64,000 bases of DNA from Thermoanaerobaculia bacterium (GTDB lineage: Bacteria > Acidobacteriota > Thermoanaerobaculia > Multivoradales > Multivoraceae). A model generated the notes under the pieces. That model was not told the DNA's origin. It saw nothing but the letters and a program-made list of their open reading frames with translations, and did not search any database. Positions within the stretch are counted from its first letter, which is position 1, and each line of letters opens with the position of its first letter. The position numbers were made by a program, and so were the translations under genes. The stretch spans positions 2,432,001 to 2,496,000 of the forward strand of contig OY762911.1 of the NCBI GenBank assembly GCA_963666565.1, read 5' to 3'. Below, one piece after another: positions 20,568 through 41,261 of this stretch.

Positions 20568-20768
20568 GGGTGCGCGGGTCTGCCGACCCGCATGGGTGCG
20601 CGGGTCTTCCGACCCGCATGGGTGCGCGGGTCTTCCGACCCGCATGGGTGCGCGGGTCTTCCGACCCGCTGCCGCCGCAGGCGGCCAGGTATTCGCGCCG
20701 CGAAGCGGCTCCGCCGGGCGACCTCCAGCGCGGTTTCGCCGGAAGCGGGTCAGAAGACCCGCGCACCC
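20568..20768. repeat. REP cluster: four tandem GGGTGCGCGGGTCTTCCGACCCGC copies (26-bp period) plus one inverted copy
   Basis: Palindrome GCGGGTC-TTCC-GACCCGC; about 17-18 copies across 20-57 kb. Confidence 0.9.
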
Positions 20769-28915: not shown

Positions 28916-31117
28916 ATGTCGAGAACCGCCAGCAGTCTGCCGGGTCCGCGCCGTCTGCCGGGTGCGCGGGTCTTCCGACCCGCCCTGGGTGCGCGGGTCT
29001 TCCGACCCGCTGCCGCCGAAGGCGGCCATGGAACGCGCCGGCCGCTGGGTGCGCGGGTCTTCCGACCCGCTGCCGCCGAAGGCGGCCATCGAACGTGCCG
29101 GCCGGAGGCCGGCTCCGCTCTCCTCCCCGGCGCCTCCGCCGTGCTGGCCGTACTCTTCGGTCTAGCCGCAGCCGCCGCCGTGGCCGAAACCGGCGAGCAG
29201 GGCCGCTCCGCCCACGGCGAGTGGCGGCACCACGGCGGCGACCACGCCTCCAGCCGATACTCGCCGCTCGCCCAGATCGACGGTTCGAACTTCGGCCGGC
29301 TCGAAATCGCCTGGCGCTGGCGCACGGCGGATCACGACGTGCCGCTGGACGTGCTGCCCGGCTACGACACCGGCTTCTACCGCTCCGTGCCGCTGATGAT
29401 CGGCGGCCGCCTGTTCGCGCCGACCAGCCTGGGCCAGGTCGCCCTGCTCGAGCCGGCGACCGGCGAGCAGAAATGGGTCTACAACCCGAAGACCTGGGAA
29501 CGCGGCGGCACCACGATGCGGCCGGTCGGCGCTCGCGGCATCGAGTACTGGTCGGACGGCGAGAAGGAGCGCCTGTTCGTCGCCACGATCGGCCGCCAGC
29601 TCGTCTCCATCGACGCCGCCACCGGCTTGGCCGACCGAGCCTTCGGCGAGGACGGCACGGTGGACCTGGCCCGGGATCTCGGCCCCGGCGACTACGCGAT
29701 TCGCCACATCACCCACGGAGCGCCGCCGATCGTCGTCGGCACGAGCGTGATCGTCGGCTCGAAGATCTTCGACTACTCGATCCGGAGCGACGCGCCGCCC
29801 GGCCACGTCCGCGCCTACGACGTCCACACGGGCGAGTTCAAGTGGCGCTTCAACACGATCCCGCGCGACGACGAGTACGGGGTCGAGACCTGGGAGAACG
29901 AGTCCTGGCGCACGGCCGGCAACGCGAACGTGTGGACGTCGATGAGCGCGGACCACGAACTGGGCTACGTCTACCTGCCGACCAGCACGCCCTCGAACGA
30001 CTACTACGGCGCCGACCGGCCCGGCGACAACCTGTTCGCCGAGAGCCTCGTCTGCGTCGACGCGGAGACGGGCGAGCGCGTCTGGCACTTCCAGACCGTC
30101 CGCCACGGCATCTGGGACTACGACATCGCCTCGGCCCCGAACCTGCTCGACATCGTCGTCGACGGCAAGCTGGTCAAGGCGGTCGCCCAGGTCTCGAAGA
30201 CCGGTTTCACCTACGTCTTCGACCGGGCCACCGGCGAGCCGGTGTGGCCGATCGAGGACCGGCCGGTGAACCACGAATCGACCGTGCCGGGCGAGAAGCT
30301 GGCGGAGACACAGCCGTTTCCGACGAAGCCGCCGGCGTTCGAGAAGCAGGGAGTCAGCGAGGACGACCTGATCGACTGGACGCCGGAACTGCGGGAGGAG
30401 GCGCTCGAGATCGCCGGGAAGCTGATCCTGGCGCCGATGTTCCCGCCCCTGATCGTCCAGGGCGAAGGGGGCAAGGAGGGCGTCGTGGTCGTGCCCGGCG
30501 CGGCCGGCGGTGCGAACCACCCCGGAGCCTCCGTGGACCCGGCGACCGGCGTGCTCTTCGTCGAGTCGCAGAACCGGCCGGTCGGCATGTCCCTGATCGA
30601 GCCGGACGCGGCCCGCCGGCCGGACTGGCGCTACGTGATCGACTACGTCGACACCGGGGGCCCTCGCGGCCTGCCGCTGTTCAAGCCGCCGTACCGGACG
30701 ATCACCGCGATCGACCTGAACCGCGGCGAGCACCTCTGGCGGATCCCGGTCGGCCCCGGCCCCAGGGACCACCCGGCGATCGCGCATCTGAACCTCGGCG
30801 ACATGGGCACCCGCTACATCGGCATGCCGGCCGACGGCGGCCTGCTCGTCACCCGCACGCTCCTGATCGGCTTCCTGGCCCTGCCCGACGAGGAGAACCC
30901 CCGCACCAGCCGCGGCGGCCTCCTGCGCGCCTACGACAAGGCGACCGGCGAGGTGCTTGCGGAACTCGAGACCGACGTCTGGCTCCACGGCCCGCCGATG
31001 ACCTACATGCACGAAGGCCGACAGTACATCGTCATCGCCGGCGGCGGCGCCCGCAACCGCCGGATACCGGACGAGTTGATCGCCTTCGCCCTACCGGATT
31101 CCGAGATGGGAGGATAG
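28916..31117 (+). CDS. PQQ-dependent glucose/quinate-type dehydrogenase with REP-derived N-terminal insert
   Basis: RYSPLAQI, WHFQTVRHGIWDYD, PMTY..GRQY motifs; RBS GGAGGA before 28916. Confidence 0.88.
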   Translation: MSRTASSLPGPRRLPGARVFRPALGARVFRPAAAEGGHGTRRPLGARVFRPAAAEGGHRTCRPEAGSALLPGASAVLAVLFGLAAAAAVAETGEQGRSAHGEWRHHGGDHASSRYSPLAQIDGSNFGRLEIAWRWRTADHDVPLDVLPGYDTGFYRSVPLMIGGRLFAPTSLGQVALLEPATGEQKWVYNPKTWERGGTTMRPVGARGIEYWSDGEKERLFVATIGRQLVSIDAATGLADRAFGEDGTVDLARDLGPGDYAIRHITHGAPPIVVGTSVIVGSKIFDYSIRSDAPPGHVRAYDVHTGEFKWRFNTIPRDDEYGVETWENESWRTAGNANVWTSMSADHELGYVYLPTSTPSNDYYGADRPGDNLFAESLVCVDAETGERVWHFQTVRHGIWDYDIASAPNLLDIVVDGKLVKAVAQVSKTGFTYVFDRATGEPVWPIEDRPVNHESTVPGEKLAETQPFPTKPPAFEKQGVSEDDLIDWTPELREEALEIAGKLILAPMFPPLIVQGEGGKEGVVVVPGAAGGANHPGASVDPATGVLFVESQNRPVGMSLIEPDAARRPDWRYVIDYVDTGGPRGLPLFKPPYRTITAIDLNRGEHLWRIPVGPGPRDHPAIAHLNLGDMGTRYIGMPADGGLLVTRTLLIGFLALPDEENPRTSRGGLLRAYDKATGEVLAELETDVWLHGPPMTYMHEGRQYIVIAGGGARNRRIPDELIAFALPDSEMGG
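28960..29104. repeat. Three REP copies, including a 60-bp tandem duplication
   Basis: Copies at 28960, 28987 and 29047. Confidence 0.85.
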
Positions 31118-31121
31118 GACC

Positions 31122-31991
31122 ATGCTTCGACGATTCTGGGATCACTGGGTGCGCGGGTCTTCTGACCCGCATCTGTCGGTGTGCGGGTCTGTCATGCGGA
31201 CGCCCGCTGACGGGCATCCGCATGGTTCGCGGCTGGCGCTCGGAGCGCGCCAGCCGGGTGCCGACCCGCACCCGGCGCAAAGCGCCGGCCTCCGGACACT
31301 GTTCGCAGTCGCCGCGCTCACGCTGCTCGCCGCTCCGCCCGCATCCGCCGCCGACTGCACCCCCCTCGAGTCCGAAGGCGGCGTCACCGTCGAGTCCTGC
31401 CCCGTCGACAACGCCGACTACCCGACCGTGCGCGCCCGAACCGTCGTCAGGGGCGCAATGCCCGCCGTGATCGCGCTGCTCGACGACGCCGGCGCCTGTC
31501 CCGAGTGGCAAGCCATGTGCGAAGAAGAGACGGCGACGCCGCTGGACGCCCCGTTCCGGACTCTCCGGCAGCGCGTGTCGGGCAAGGGCATCAGCCGCCG
31601 CATCTCGATGAACACCTCGGCCTGGTGGCGGACCGCCGACGGCCGGGTCATCGGCGACATGGCCGGCACCGACGACCGGACGCCGGCCTTCAAGGGCAAG
31701 CGGGTCCTCTGCATGCACGCCCGCTGGTTCCTCTCTCCGGGCGAGCAGGAAGGCACGGTCGAGGTCGTCCAGGAGAGCGTCAGCGACCCGCAGCCGCCGT
31801 TCGGCATGGGGCAGAGGGTAGTGACGCCGCGCACCGCGAAGACGATGCTGGAGACCTTCACGAACCTCGGCGCCCGGATCGCCGGCGGCCGGCACGGCGC
31901 CGGCCCCGCCGTCGAGTCGCTGCCGCCGCTGGAAGGCGACCTCCCCGGCATCGGCGAAGAGTTCGCTCGCTGCCAGGCCGCCCGCAAGTAA
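31122..31991 (+). CDS. Secreted START/SRPBCC-like lipid-binding protein
   Basis: Signal-like segment, ACPEWQAMC, DPQPP; RBS GGAGG before 31122. Confidence 0.6.
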   Translation: MLRRFWDHWVRGSSDPHLSVCGSVMRTPADGHPHGSRLALGARQPGADPHPAQSAGLRTLFAVAALTLLAAPPASAADCTPLESEGGVTVESCPVDNADYPTVRARTVVRGAMPAVIALLDDAGACPEWQAMCEEETATPLDAPFRTLRQRVSGKGISRRISMNTSAWWRTADGRVIGDMAGTDDRTPAFKGKRVLCMHARWFLSPGEQEGTVEVVQESVSDPQPPFGMGQRVVTPRTAKTMLETFTNLGARIAGGRHGAGPAVESLPPLEGDLPGIGEEFARCQAARK

Positions 31992-32086
31992 CGCCCCCTG
32001 GGTAATGGGATGGTCCGCCCCGCCCTCTACGGCCTCTTGTAGGGCCAGAATGGGTTTTTCCCAACCAACAAGGGAGGAGACGGACC

Positions 32087-33145
32087 ATGAAGAAGGTTAC
32101 TCGAGTCGGTATCGATCTGGGCAAGCGCCTGTTCCAGGTGTGCGCGATGGACTCGTCGGGCGCGGTGGTGTTTCAGCGTCAGGTGAAGGCGTCGGGGCTG
32201 ATGGAGTTGATGGTGCAGCTCGAGCCGTGCCTGGTGGGCATGGAGGCGAGCTGCGGCGCGCACTACTGGGTGGAGAAGCTGAGCGCTCTGGGTCACGACG
32301 CGCGGATGATGAGTCCTCAGTTCGTGCGGCCTTACGTGAAGTCGAACAAGAGCGACTACCACGACGCGGAGGCGATCTGCGAGGCGGTGTCCCGTCCGAC
32401 GATGCGTTTCGTGCCGTACAAGACGAAGGAGCAGCGTGCTCTTCAGCAGGTTCATCGGAGCCGGGAGGCGGCGCTTCGCCGTCGCACGCAGTTGGTGAAC
32501 CAGTTGCGGGGATTCCTGGGCGAGTACGGGATCGTGCTGCGTCAGGGCCGGGCGGTGGTCATGCGGGCGGTGCCCGACATCGCGAGCGACGCGGAGCGCG
32601 AGCTGCCGGGTCAGTTTCGCGCGCTGCTGTGGATGCAGTACGAGGCTCTGATGCAGGTCCACAAGGAGGTCGAGGACCTGACCGCGATGCTGGTGCGGGA
32701 GTCGAAGGAGAACCCTCACTGCCAGCGTCTGATGTCGATTCCGGGCATCGGTCCGATCGTGGCGACGGCGATCGTGGCGGCGGTGGGCAACGGCTGGGCT
32801 TTCAGCAGCGGTCGTCAGATGTCGGCCTGGATGGGCTTGGTGCCGCGTCAGGACTCGACCGGGGGTCGCACGGTGCTGCGCGGGATCAGCAAGCGCGGCG
32901 ACCGTTACCTGCGCTCGCTCCTGATCCACGGTGCGCGGGCGGTCCTGCGCACGGCGGCGAAGGGCGAGCGAACGCGGCTGAAGGGCTGGGCGCTCGACGT
33001 CAAGCGGCGCCGGGGGCCGAACGTCGCCACGGTGGCACTGGCCAACAAGCTGGGCCGCATCGCCTGGGCGGTGCTTCGCCGCGGCGAGCTGTACCGCGAC
33101 GACCGCCTCGCCGGGTCTCGGCAGAAGGTCTCTCGGGCCGCGTAG
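32087..33145 (+). CDS. IS110/IS1111 recombinase
   Basis: GIDLGK, MEASC, KSDYHDAEAI (DEDD), IPGIG, GLVP.QDSTGG, ISKRG motifs. Confidence 0.97.
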   Translation: MKKVTRVGIDLGKRLFQVCAMDSSGAVVFQRQVKASGLMELMVQLEPCLVGMEASCGAHYWVEKLSALGHDARMMSPQFVRPYVKSNKSDYHDAEAICEAVSRPTMRFVPYKTKEQRALQQVHRSREAALRRRTQLVNQLRGFLGEYGIVLRQGRAVVMRAVPDIASDAERELPGQFRALLWMQYEALMQVHKEVEDLTAMLVRESKENPHCQRLMSIPGIGPIVATAIVAAVGNGWAFSSGRQMSAWMGLVPRQDSTGGRTVLRGISKRGDRYLRSLLIHGARAVLRTAAKGERTRLKGWALDVKRRRGPNVATVALANKLGRIAWAVLRRGELYRDDRLAGSRQKVSRAA

Positions 33146-33425
33146 CAGGCGGCTCGATCCACATCGAATCAACCAAGGAGGATTGCCCCACCAAGTCGTT
33201 GCGAGGACACAACGGAGCGATGGCGAAACAGGTCGGACCGGCGCGTCGAGAGCCTGAACCCGCGCAGGGCCATTCAACAGGCCGTCTGGGTGTACAGAAG
33301 AGACGACGCGCGCGTATTCCATCGGGGCCAGGGAGCTCGAAACCACGAGACGCCCAACAACAGGCCGAATACATGCAAGCAACGACACCTCTCTCGCCGG
33401 AACTCCGGAAAGTGCCCTTGCACAA
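33146..33425 (+). ncRNA. Putative bridge/seek RNA region of the IS1111 element
   Basis: Target guides ACCCGCGCA (33258-33266) and CTGGGTG (33286-33292) around a GGCC hairpin; donor-like ATTCCATC...AATACATG; exact RNA ends unknown. Confidence 0.75.
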
Positions 33426-33443
33426 GCGGGGCGGACCATACAT

Positions 33444-33577
33444 GCGCGGGTCTTCTGACCCGCATTCCGCCGAAAGCGGCCGACAGCATCGTCGCCGGCC
33501 TGCGGCCGGCGGCCCTGTTGTCCGGGCTCGCCGCTTCGCGGCGTCGCCCGCGAGCGGGTCGGAAGACCCGCGCACCC
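33444..33577. repeat. REPIN-like inverted REP pair
   Basis: Forward REP (split by the IS) and inverted copy at 33554-33577. Confidence 0.75.
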
Positions 33578-33591
33578 AGCGGAGGAGAGGT

Positions 33592-34932
33592 TCAGGGGCC
33601 GGGTTTCGCCGAGCCGCCGAACACGCCGTCGAGAACCGCCCGCACCCGCGGCAGCATCGGATACGTGTCCGGGTCGGACTCCGCCGCCGCGTAGCCGACC
33701 CACACGGCCACCACGTCCCGGACCGGGTTGACCAGCAGCCCCTGGCCGGCCCATCCGCCCTTGTACACGTCGTCGTTCGTGAAGACCAGGTCCCACTGGT
33801 AGACGTTGTGCCGGACGCCGGGCGGCCTGCCGCCGAAGCGGGCGTTCTCCAGCAGTTCCGGCCTGCCGCCGTGGAGGAGCAGGTCCACGTGCTCCTCGGG
33901 CACGATCCGCTCCGCCGACACCTTGCCGTAGCTCGGTGTGAACAGGAGACCGAACCGCGCCATGTCCCGCGGCCGCGCCAGCAGGCCGCCGGAGGTCAGC
34001 GGGATGCCGTAGCGGTTGGCGTAGATCGAGGCGTCCGCCTCGGCGCCGATGCGGGTCCACACATCACGGCTCAGCGCGTCCTGGAACGGCATGCCCGCGA
34101 CCTCCTCGACCAGCCAGCCGATCACGAAGGTGTTCGTGCCCGAGTAGTCGAAGCTCCGGCCCTGTTCGGCCCAGCGGCCGACGTCCAGGTTGGCGAGCAT
34201 CGTGTACGGATCGTCCGGCGTCTTCTCGCTGCGCACGCCGTCGCCGAGCGAGGCCTCGAACTGGTAGTAGCAGGTGCTCCGGTCGCTGTAGTCGCCGTCC
34301 GGGCAGTCGACGCCGGACGCCATGTCGAGCACGTTGCGAACGGTGACGCCCTTGAAGTCGGAGCCGGCGAGCGCGGGAACGTAGCGTTCCACCGGCTGGC
34401 TCGTGTCGACCAGCCCGCGCTGCTCGAGGATCGCCACCAGGGTCGCCGGGAGCACCTTGGTCACCGACCACCAGATCGGCTTCTCGTGCGGCTGCATCCG
34501 CGGATAGCGCTCGAACACGACGTCGCCCCGGTGGAGTACGACGATGCCCATCGTGGTCGAGTGTTCTCCGTGCAGCCAGGCGTCGAAGGTCGTCTCGCCG
34601 GCCGGCGTCTGCACCGGGAAGTCGGCGATGGCGGCCAGCGGGCGCGCCGCCAGCTCGCTGACCGGCCCGTCGCGGTAGACGTTGACGGTCGGCACGATCT
34701 GGTGGAGGTTGCGGTTGCGCCAGGCCATCGCCTCGCCGGTCTCGGTCCACCAGACCTCCTCGGCGGGGTCGGGCAGGGCGCGGTGCTGGCGCAGGTTCTC
34801 CGCGACGGTCGATGCCGGCTCGAAGACGTCCGTCGGCGGGCTGGCCACCTGGCCCTCCGTCGTCGAAGCGGTTTCATGCGTGCAGGCGGCGGCTACGGCG
34901 AGCGCGAGCGGCACGAAGAGCGCAGGCTTCAT
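33592..34932 (-). CDS. Serine hydrolase lipoprotein (class C beta-lactamase / NylB-like)
   Basis: Lipobox-like AAAC, SVTK, FDYSG, DMARFG motifs. Confidence 0.88.
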   Translation of the reverse strand: MKPALFVPLALAVAAACTHETASTTEGQVASPPTDVFEPASTVAENLRQHRALPDPAEEVWWTETGEAMAWRNRNLHQIVPTVNVYRDGPVSELAARPLAAIADFPVQTPAGETTFDAWLHGEHSTTMGIVVLHRGDVVFERYPRMQPHEKPIWWSVTKVLPATLVAILEQRGLVDTSQPVERYVPALAGSDFKGVTVRNVLDMASGVDCPDGDYSDRSTCYYQFEASLGDGVRSEKTPDDPYTMLANLDVGRWAEQGRSFDYSGTNTFVIGWLVEEVAGMPFQDALSRDVWTRIGAEADASIYANRYGIPLTSGGLLARPRDMARFGLLFTPSYGKVSAERIVPEEHVDLLLHGGRPELLENARFGGRPPGVRHNVYQWDLVFTNDDVYKGGWAGQGLLVNPVRDVVAVWVGYAAAESDPDTYPMLPRVRAVLDGVFGGSAKPGP

Positions 34933-41096: not shown

Positions 41097-41261
41097 GGGT
41101 GCGCGGGTCTTCCGACCCGCTCTCCGGGCGAAGCCGCGAAGCGGCGCAGCCCGGACAACGAGGTCGCCGGCCAAAGGCCGGCGACGATGCTGGCGGCCGC
41201 CTGCGGCGGCAAGCGGGTCGGAAGACCCGCGCACCCAGTGGGTCAGAAGACCCGCGCACCC
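41097..41261. repeat. REPIN-like element (one forward and two inverted REPs) between convergent genes
   Basis: Copies at 41097, 41213 and 41238. Confidence 0.8.

Follow-up and report, generated by a model that had tools for sequence, protein, structure and literature searches.

The insertion sequence (IS) ISPpu10 of Pseudomonas putida belongs to the IS1111 group and targets repetitive extragenic palindromes (REPs). It is one of the six IS110-family elements for which Durrant et al. presented predicted bridge RNAs, and target and donor loops were predicted in that work for IS1111 members including ISPpu10 and ISPa11 (PMC11208160); the ISPpu10 minicircle is described as forming a strong hybrid promoter (PMC12288879). 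The seekRNA of ISPa11, 96 nt long (172 nt in the long form), is reported to co-purify with the transposase and carries the top-strand match 5′ of the bottom-strand match (PMC11187229; PMC13604230), an order that Siddiquee et al. give for all IS1111 members tested (PMC11187229). Natural re-direction, in which close relatives differ in guide segments and in target, is described there for ISEc11 and ISXne4 (PMC11187229). Here we analyse a stretch of 64,000 nucleotides (the window) from a Thermoanaerobaculia bacterium of the Acidobacteriota (GenBank assembly GCA_963666565.1, contig OY762911.1, positions 2,432,001 to 2,496,000 of the forward strand), in which an element of this kind separates the two halves of a REP. 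It is very probably an intact and recently active IS1111-group (IS110 family) element, whose DEDD/Ser-type recombinase would be guided by an RNA from the 298-bp region 3′ of its gene. The element, its ends and its target halves are as follows, in window coordinates.

32003-33442 (equally 32004-33443), + strand: IS1111-group insertion sequence, 1440 bp, five identical genomic copies
31998-32003, + strand: left half of the REP target, CTGGGT, its final T common with the right end of the element
32003-32009, + strand: left terminal extension TAATGGG, 7 bp, outside the inverted repeat
32010-32023, + strand: left subterminal inverted repeat ATGGTCCGCCCCGC, 14 bp
33427-33440, + strand: right subterminal inverted repeat GCGGGGCGGACCAT, 14 bp, complement of the left one
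33441-33443, + strand: right extension ACA(T), 3(+1) bp, whose CAT with the AAT of the left end makes a -10 box
33444-33463, + strand: right half of the REP target, GCGCGGGTC, with the REP hairpin GCGGGTC-TTCT-GACCCGC

Read directly in the window, the left border is ...CTGGGT/AATGGGATGGTCC... and the right border ...GGACCATACAT/GCGCGGGTCTTCTGACCCGC (the slash marks the insertion point throughout), and because one T fits on either side the element is either 32003-33442 or 32004-33443. The initial annotation had given the element as 31998-33463; an element does lie there, but that span also takes in the target halves and the REP hairpin, and the element proper is confined to 32003/4-33442/3. On the right, the T at 33443 is followed by GCGCGGGTC (33444-52) and by the REP hairpin (33446-63). 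The five copies present on the host contig (4.79 Mb, 70% G+C) are 100% identical over 1440 bp and share site and orientation, the site being CTGGGT/GCGCGGGTC for four of them and ATGGGT/GCGCGGGTC for the fifth. Insertion is thus sequence-specific and oriented, without target duplication, and the flanks rebuild a free REP exactly: when the 1440 bp are excised in silico, CTGGGTGCGCGGGTC is restored, which bears out the earlier claim that the joined flanks form the REP. It had also been claimed that many free targets lie in the same window, and seven uninterrupted copies of the 14-mer CTGGGTGCGCGGGT are indeed found there, out of 526 unoccupied copies in the genome, where about 0.31 would be expected from base composition. 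The check proposed at the time, whether other genomic copies occupy the same target, can be answered in the affirmative for 5/5 copies, and for related elements, described below, in 44/44 cases at (C/A)TGGGT/GCGC....

In assembled contigs of four sequencing runs the element stands as a unitig of its own (31998-33472), both ends of which fall exactly in the REP halves; among the runs listed for this stretch, none is recorded as RNA. A run from a different study contains a variant of the element with 20 substitutions and one deletion, its target unchanged. In two runs the depth of the IS unitig is about 4.4 times that of the flanks, which fits a multi-copy element, though depth does not give a copy number.

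The REP hairpin stands to the right of 4/5 copies, as would be expected if the transposase protein itself read the REP, by hairpin shape or by sequence, the REP-like words in the non-coding region being incidental. REP targeting by IS110/IS1111 elements was also reportedly described by Tobes and Pareja in 2006, long before guide RNAs. The fifth copy (genome position 347394) speaks against such protein recognition, having only the 15-mer: its GCGCGGGTC is followed by unrelated sequence with no REP hairpin downstream. Because of this copy, a linear 14-15-mer appears to be sufficient as target.

The transposase assigns the element to its family.

32072-32079, + strand: Shine-Dalgarno-like GGGAGGAG, 7 nt 5′ of the ATG, read directly
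32087-33145, + strand: transposase gene, 352 amino acids, with DEDD residues D10, E53, D90 and D93 and a GLVP-RQDS-TG motif at 250-259

Two Pfam domains cover the protein, PF01548 (DEDD_Tnp_IS110) at residues 7-147 (E 4e-20) and PF02371 (Transposase_20) at residues 212-290 (E 8e-24), and it scores 341 bits, against a cut-off of 140, with the NCBIfam model NF033542, 'IS110 family RNA-guided transposase'. The four DEDD residues are invariant across nine aligned transposases (this one and eight relatives). The conserved C-terminal motif G250 L251 V252 P253 RQDS T258 G259 agrees with the pattern GL-P----S(t)G and occupies the place of the Ser-Gly nucleophile motif, T258 being aligned to the Ser of the ESG of ISCro4. 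The closest solved relatives by sequence, in the C-terminal domain only, are ISCro4 (E 1.3e-9) and IS621 (8wt6, E 2e-9). Further characteristics of the IS1111 group are subterminal inverted repeats within 7-17 bp (14 bp here), short outer extensions (7 bp on the left) and a longer non-coding side downstream of the transposase gene, the non-coding DNA amounting to 84 bp 5′ and 298 bp 3′ of the gene. The domain pair, the NF033542 score, the inverted repeats and the long 3′ non-coding region agree with the initial annotation of the locus as an IS1111 element.

The 3′ non-coding region contains two segments that match the two halves of the target, within a predicted stem-loop.

33241-33311, + strand: target-binding stem-loop, basal stem of GCGCGUCG (33241-48) with CGACGCGC (33304-11), enclosing an internal loop
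33258-33266, + strand: right-target guide ACCCGCGCA, the reverse complement of T plus GCGCGGGT, complementary to the top strand
33267-33283, + strand: central hairpin GGGCC-AUUCAACA-GGCC between the target guides, arms GGGCC (33267-71) and GGCC (33280-83)
33286-33292, + strand: left-target guide CUGGGUG, equal to top-strand CTGGGT plus G, pairing with the bottom strand

The order of the guides, with the top-strand match first, is the one reported for IS1111 members, whose seekRNA region likewise lies 3′ of the transposase gene (PMC11187229). Short G+C-rich matches are common in shuffled sequence, single short matches included, which could be taken in favour of recognition by the protein. In an unconstrained test, 83/5000 shuffles gave both a sense match of 7 nt or more and an antisense match of 9 nt or more, which is only mildly significant. 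The test relied on instead was a constrained one, in which matches must span the insertion point: among 20000 dinucleotide shuffles of the non-coding region, a junction-spanning antisense 9-mer was found in 628 and both matches, sense 7-mer and antisense 9-mer, in 49, and both in the observed order and within 60 nt in only 8. The earlier claim that guide words on either side of a GGCC hairpin specify the REP is thus upheld by direct reading and by this test, as well as by covariation and by a cognate versus non-cognate comparison of eight distant relatives, both given below.

The REP words inside the element could also be a captured REP fragment, a functionless relic of an old insertion or recombination, and in a genome saturated with REPs (526 perfect 14-mers, some of them tandem) such pieces could be picked up. 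Capture would be expected to leave a contiguous REP with a single orientation, whereas here the halves are split by a conserved hairpin and one of them is inverted; moreover, both halves end at the insertion point, relatives with non-REP targets keep the layout, and the segment changes in step with the host REP variant. We consider the capture of a REP fragment extremely improbable.

The reading of these segments as guides is also supported by natural covariation in relatives within the genus. A scan of species-representative genomes revealed relatives with 76-82% protein identity and about 81-85% DNA identity over the aligned length (mostly full length), whose hosts are metagenome-assembled genomes (MAGs) labelled Thermoanaerobaculia or Candidatus Multivorans. 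A search with the non-coding region found it in 14/41 other genomes of the same genus and in 0/15 genomes from twelve other genera. After removal of duplicates, 44 distinct complete insertion sites in related genomes formed the covariation set. On the left side the target is CTGGGT at 43 sites and ATGGGT at one, and the left guide is CUGGGUG at all 44. On the right side the guide varies together with the target: ACCCGCGCA is found at TGCGCGGGT with perfect pairing (18/18 sites), whereas right flanks of the form GCGCCG(A/G)C go with GUCGGCGCA in place of ACCCGCGCA. Of the sites of this second guide, 7 have TGCGCCGAC and 14 have TGCGCCGGC, one U of the guide facing A or G (one G.U pair), and pairing is full in 21/21 cases. 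The two guides differ by three substitutions, each of them compensatory to a change in the target, and the non-coding regions concerned are on average 88% identical. The covariation of guide and target supports, at the level of sequence, a guide function for these non-coding segments.

The availability of REP variants differs between hosts. Among the first 100 matches listed for the GUCGGCGCA host, GGC was found 61 times, GAC 38 times, GAT once and GCGCGGGT not at all; 99 of these first 100 are thus REPs of the GCGCCGRC type, and the 14:7 split of the GUCGGCGCA insertions is about what availability predicts. Three compensatory changes of guide and target between lineages otherwise about 85% identical in the non-coding region are a second argument against recognition by the protein.

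More distant elements were needed for the donor segments, because the ends of the element are invariant within the genus. Eight records were picked, for host diversity and copy number, from the best 30 plasmid protein matches (all below 60% identity), before their non-coding regions were inspected, and a copy from a Bdellovibrionales MAG (L046, 39% identity) was added; an Aeromonas plasmid copy (L089), the right end of which was not found, was dropped. The final set is nine elements, namely eight with 39-50% amino acid identity and the present one. Their subterminal inverted repeats start with ATGG(A/T)C in 9/9, and the left extension is YAATGGN in 8/9 (TGATGGA in L046). The antisense match to an element's own right flank is at least 8 nt long in 8/9 (mean 8.1), and it is never longer than 7 nt among the 72 non-cognate pairs (0/72, mean 4.9); in L088 one internal mismatch interrupts the match, leaving an exact run of at most 5 nt. 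For the own left flank the mean sense match is 6.3, versus 4.7 for non-cognate pairs; a convincing left-target guide was not found in L046, whose two junction bases are not alike (T at the left, C at the right). In 8/9 diverged elements, whose flanks are unrelated and not REPs, the corresponding place in the RNA is complementary to the right flank of the element in question, a further argument against a REP-reading protein, and deletion and reprogramming experiments have been published for ISEc11 (PMC11187229). We regard recognition of the REP by the transposase protein itself as very improbable.

Guidance by the RNA would also involve a second module, for the ends of the element.

33316-33324, + strand: candidate right-donor guide AUUCCAUCG, which would pair with the left end TAATGGGAT; register inferred
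33325-33366, + strand: hairpin at the centre of loop 2 (donor loop), GGGCC ... GGCC, containing an inner stem-loop
33369-33376, + strand: left-donor guide AUACAUGC, equal to ATACAT of the right end followed by GC, the two flank bases next to it; 9/9 cognate matches, varying with the end sequence

This second module, AUUCCAUCG-GGGCC-(33 nt)-GGCC-GA-AUACAUGC, parallels the first, ACCCGCGCA-GGGCC-(8 nt)-GGCC-GU-CUGGGUG. With the first nine bases of the element (TAATGGGAT), AUUCCAUCG could form six Watson-Crick pairs, two G.U pairs and one mismatch, and AUUCCAU(C) stands at the right-donor guide position in 6/9 elements. AUACAU equals the last six bases of the element. The motif 'AT + right extension + G' was found at the same relative place in 9/9 non-coding regions, the right extensions being ACAT, ACAC, GTAT, ATAC, GCAT and GTAC; in the sense direction each of these regions matches the element's own right end in full (9/9), whereas a full 6-nt match occurs in 9/72 non-cognate pairs, eight of them with the same end. 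Three fragments that retain only the right end (L048, L049 and L054) have the same right-end match by eye, and a further one (L051) is cut by a contig end. All four segments stand in the same order in 9/9 elements, and this layout is kept in relatives with unrelated, non-REP targets.

The right-end segment extends into the target flank, its first flank base (G) matching in 9/9, its second in 6/9 and its third in 2/9; in a set of nine partly related elements this suggests, at most, a match that goes beyond the element itself. All four guide segments end on the target dinucleotide, as UG where the segment is sense and as CA or CG where it is antisense, a feature that resembles the 'core' of bridge RNAs. 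The left end of the element reads TA (YA across the set), and only T is common to the donor and target junctions; either the crossover lies directly after this T or a mismatch is tolerated. It is conceivable, but in our judgement rather unlikely, that the donor loop of the IS1111 group is tuned to the integrated right junction and not to the circle. If this were true, a single RNA would read the substrate of excision as well as the product of insertion, by a kind of handshake that involves the bottom-strand guide, and such tuning could explain why ISEc11 needs target-derived flanks for circle formation. The guide also appears to track the dominant REP variant of its host, by means of a U that would accept both variants in one host.

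The predicted RNA structure agrees with the two modules. Because the sequences within the genus are too similar (39 pairs in their alignment, 0 compensatory changes), the distant set was used for structure: the RNAalifold consensus of its nine sequences has 21 pairs, 14 of them with compensatory changes, which cover the basal stem and central hairpin of loop 1 and the closing stem and central hairpin of loop 2. The same two modules are obtained when the present RNA is folded alone, and the layout is that predicted by Durrant et al. for IS1111 members. One more conserved segment lies outside the modules.

33177-33195, + strand: conserved segment GGAGGATTGCCCCACCAAG, directly past the transposase stop codon, 17/19 positions invariant in nine related sequences

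In a fold of the whole non-coding region this segment pairs with the right inverted repeat. The Rfam search gave no family match to the IS RNA. Its sole match, Pseudomon-groES at 33408-33510, was rejected as chance or REP structure: with 27.4 bits it stays below the gathering score of 50, its location is that of the REP hairpins, and the probable cause is the presence of REP-like stem-loops in the family model, not homology.

Joining of the ends would create a promoter, one half of which lies inside the right end.

33418-33423, + strand: TTGCAC, -35 half of the joined-end promoter

From TTGCAC, 17 nt lead to CAT (33441-43), which in the circle would join AAT (32004-06). A -10 box of the form YAYAAT is conserved across the junction in 8/9 elements of the distant set (TATAAT in 2, CATAAT in 4, TACAAT in 2; CACGAT in L046), and in 8/9 a TTG stands 16-18 nt upstream of the junction -10 box. 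The construction is the same as in the published Pjunc of ISEc11 and other junction promoters of the family (PMC11187229). A junction promoter TTGCAC-N17-CATAAT had been proposed for this locus; its sequence is confirmed, by reading and by conservation in the family, and it agrees with the consensus at 8/12 positions. A promoter scan of 31900-33600 found no sigma-70-like site in the linear element, leaving room for non-canonical promoters and for read-through from the upstream gene. In this copy the element begins 12 bp past the stop codon of a co-oriented host gene (31122-31991); host read-through into the transposase gene at 32087 could therefore express transposase and RNA without a circle. 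The contigs of the four sequencing runs show neither a circle junction nor an empty-site joint at the locus, which is uninformative, since contigs drop rare forms. A contig joint from 33463 to 31998, with 10 letters between, was considered and rejected as a circle; it is the flank of another genomic copy.

The same data bear on whether the element is a guide-RNA IS1111 member that has become inert in this genome, its copies being fossils. Five copies are few against 526 free targets, and the linear element lacks a promoter-like site. Conversely, low copy number is expected where the promoter exists only in the circle, the reading frame, ends and guides are intact in copies identical over their whole length, and a related lineage occupies at least 21 distinct sites in one genome. 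An inert element is, in our opinion, improbable.

The anatomy of the element, its target specificity, the covariation of guide and target, the four-segment layout and the conservation of the junction -10 box are established here by comparison of sequences, and they suggest the following mechanism. A seekRNA (bridge RNA) from the 298-bp region downstream of the gene would guide the recombinase. In loop 1, ACCCGCGCA would pair with the top strand of T plus GCGCGGGT and CUGGGUG with the bottom strand of CTGGGT plus G, the two guides jointly specifying the 14-bp site CTGGGT/GCGCGGGT at the foot of the REP hairpin; in the parallel loop 2, AUUCCAUCG and AUACAUG(C) would match the left and right ends of the element. 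The element would leave as a circle, and end joining would make TTGCAC-N17-CATAAT, a junction promoter that could drive the transposase and then, by read-through and processing, the RNA. The circle would integrate at a free REP without target duplication. The production and binding of the RNA, the formation of the circle and the chemistry are assumed by analogy with published work on relatives.

Several observations weigh against this interpretation. In the genome of the present element GCGCGGGTC is present at 525/761 CTGGGTGCG sites, and GCGCCGGCG at 45, so that five copies would fall in GCGCGGGTC REPs fairly often by availability alone; because these REPs dominate, the five local insertions alone have no power to separate guided from unguided choice. 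Taken by itself the left guide counts for little, since 1448/20000 shuffles contain a junction-spanning sense 7-mer. Two minor guide variants within the genus pair less well. The sites of GCCCGCGCA are ...GGGC (1), ...GGGT (1, with a G.T pair) and ...GGAC (2, with one mismatch), one of the two ...GGAC sites having an extra A after the guide. The guide GCCGCCGCA stands at TGCGCCGGC with one mismatch at its single site (1/1); a decayed relative (L063), the right end of which is lost, has the perfectly matching GCCGGCGCA for GCCGCCGCA.

The RNA and the promoter also fall short of the ideal in some respects. The z-scores obtained on folding are of modest size: -2.0 and -2.5 for the individual modules, -1.7 for both together and -1.5 when the entire non-coding region is folded. 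In the predicted free RNA the two target guides partly pair with each other. Inside the genus the ends are invariant, and covariation there lends no support to the donor guides; the left end contains ATGG twice, which makes the register of the right-donor guide ambiguous. In the junction promoter the -35 box agrees with TTGACA at 3/6 positions and the -10 box with its consensus at 5/6, giving the 8/12 mentioned above, and it would not pass the promoter scanner's own criteria; in one relative (L006) the -35 box is TCGCAC.

Some observations concern the REPs and the relatives more generally. The commoner REP hairpin variants are present in 350 copies in the genome. The window contains short tandem REP arrays at 20568-20660, 28960-29060 and 41097-41250, in the first of which four GGGTGCGCGGGTC starts follow one another at intervals of 26 bp (20568-20646). 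A mechanically called open reading frame (28916-31117) has three REPs in its 5′ part, where they are translated as repeated LGARVFRPAAAEGGH; the true start of this frame is probably downstream. One match to a Y1 transposase was found, PF01797 with 36.3 bits (above the cut-off) at genome positions 749427-749648 (locus L094), in an open frame of 304 amino acids. This protein is a candidate REP-associated tyrosine transposase (RAYT) for the REP family, which would fit the pattern of REP/REPIN repeats with a RAYT gene. The candidate lies within about 55 kb of 3/5 copies of the IS (at 724.5, 740.4 and 803.5 kb). In related genomes, decayed copies (L052/L076, L063, L067, L044, L047, L050 and L053) have truncated transposase genes; in L063 the right end is cut inside the inverted repeat, and in other decayed copies the left guide has drifted (CTGGCCG, CTGGATG).

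What does this element add to the systems already described? No new principle is involved: publications of 2024 and before already cover RNA-guided targeting, REP targeting, junction promoters and natural re-direction. An IS1111 case from Acidobacteriota is absent from the papers cited here, a statement limited to these papers, no dedicated literature search having been made on the point. The value of the locus lies in a clean, fully readable natural case from this phylum, together with a ready-made retargeting series of four guide variants and 44 insertion sites across related genomes, from which one can read the guide positions that matter and the tolerance of G.U pairs at one position. Rules for guide design could be drawn from the series as a natural data set, and it could illustrate how an IS tracks REP/REPIN variants.

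As in ISPa11 (IS1111 family, Pseudomonas aeruginosa), the insertion point in the host REP is fixed, the inverted repeats are subterminal and the RNA region is non-coding and 3′ of the gene (PMC11187229); the present element differs in coming from Acidobacteriota (Thermoanaerobaculia) and in having another REP and target sequence, the comparison being made by published description only. The likeness to ISPpu10, also drawn from the published description, is that its target and donor loops were predicted by inspecting the element boundaries, as here (PMC11208160). With IS621 (IS110 group, Escherichia coli) it has in common a recombinase of the DEDD plus Ser type, an RNA with two loops and two guides in each, a REP target and, as proposed here, a promoter restored on circularisation (PMC11208160, PMC11208158). 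IS621 differs in that its RNA lies 5′ of the gene, the guide order is reversed and the subterminal inverted repeats are only 2-3 bp; it has a CT core in donor and target, whereas here only one T is common to both junctions. A further parallel is the natural re-direction of ISEc11 and ISXne4, of which the series described here (ACCCGCGCA, GUCGGCGCA, GCCCGCGCA and GCCGCCGCA with their flanks) is the same phenomenon. Unlike in that case, retargeting here takes place among variants of one REP family in one genus, only the right-target guide changes, and one guide has a U able to pair with both of its host's REP variants, with A or with G.

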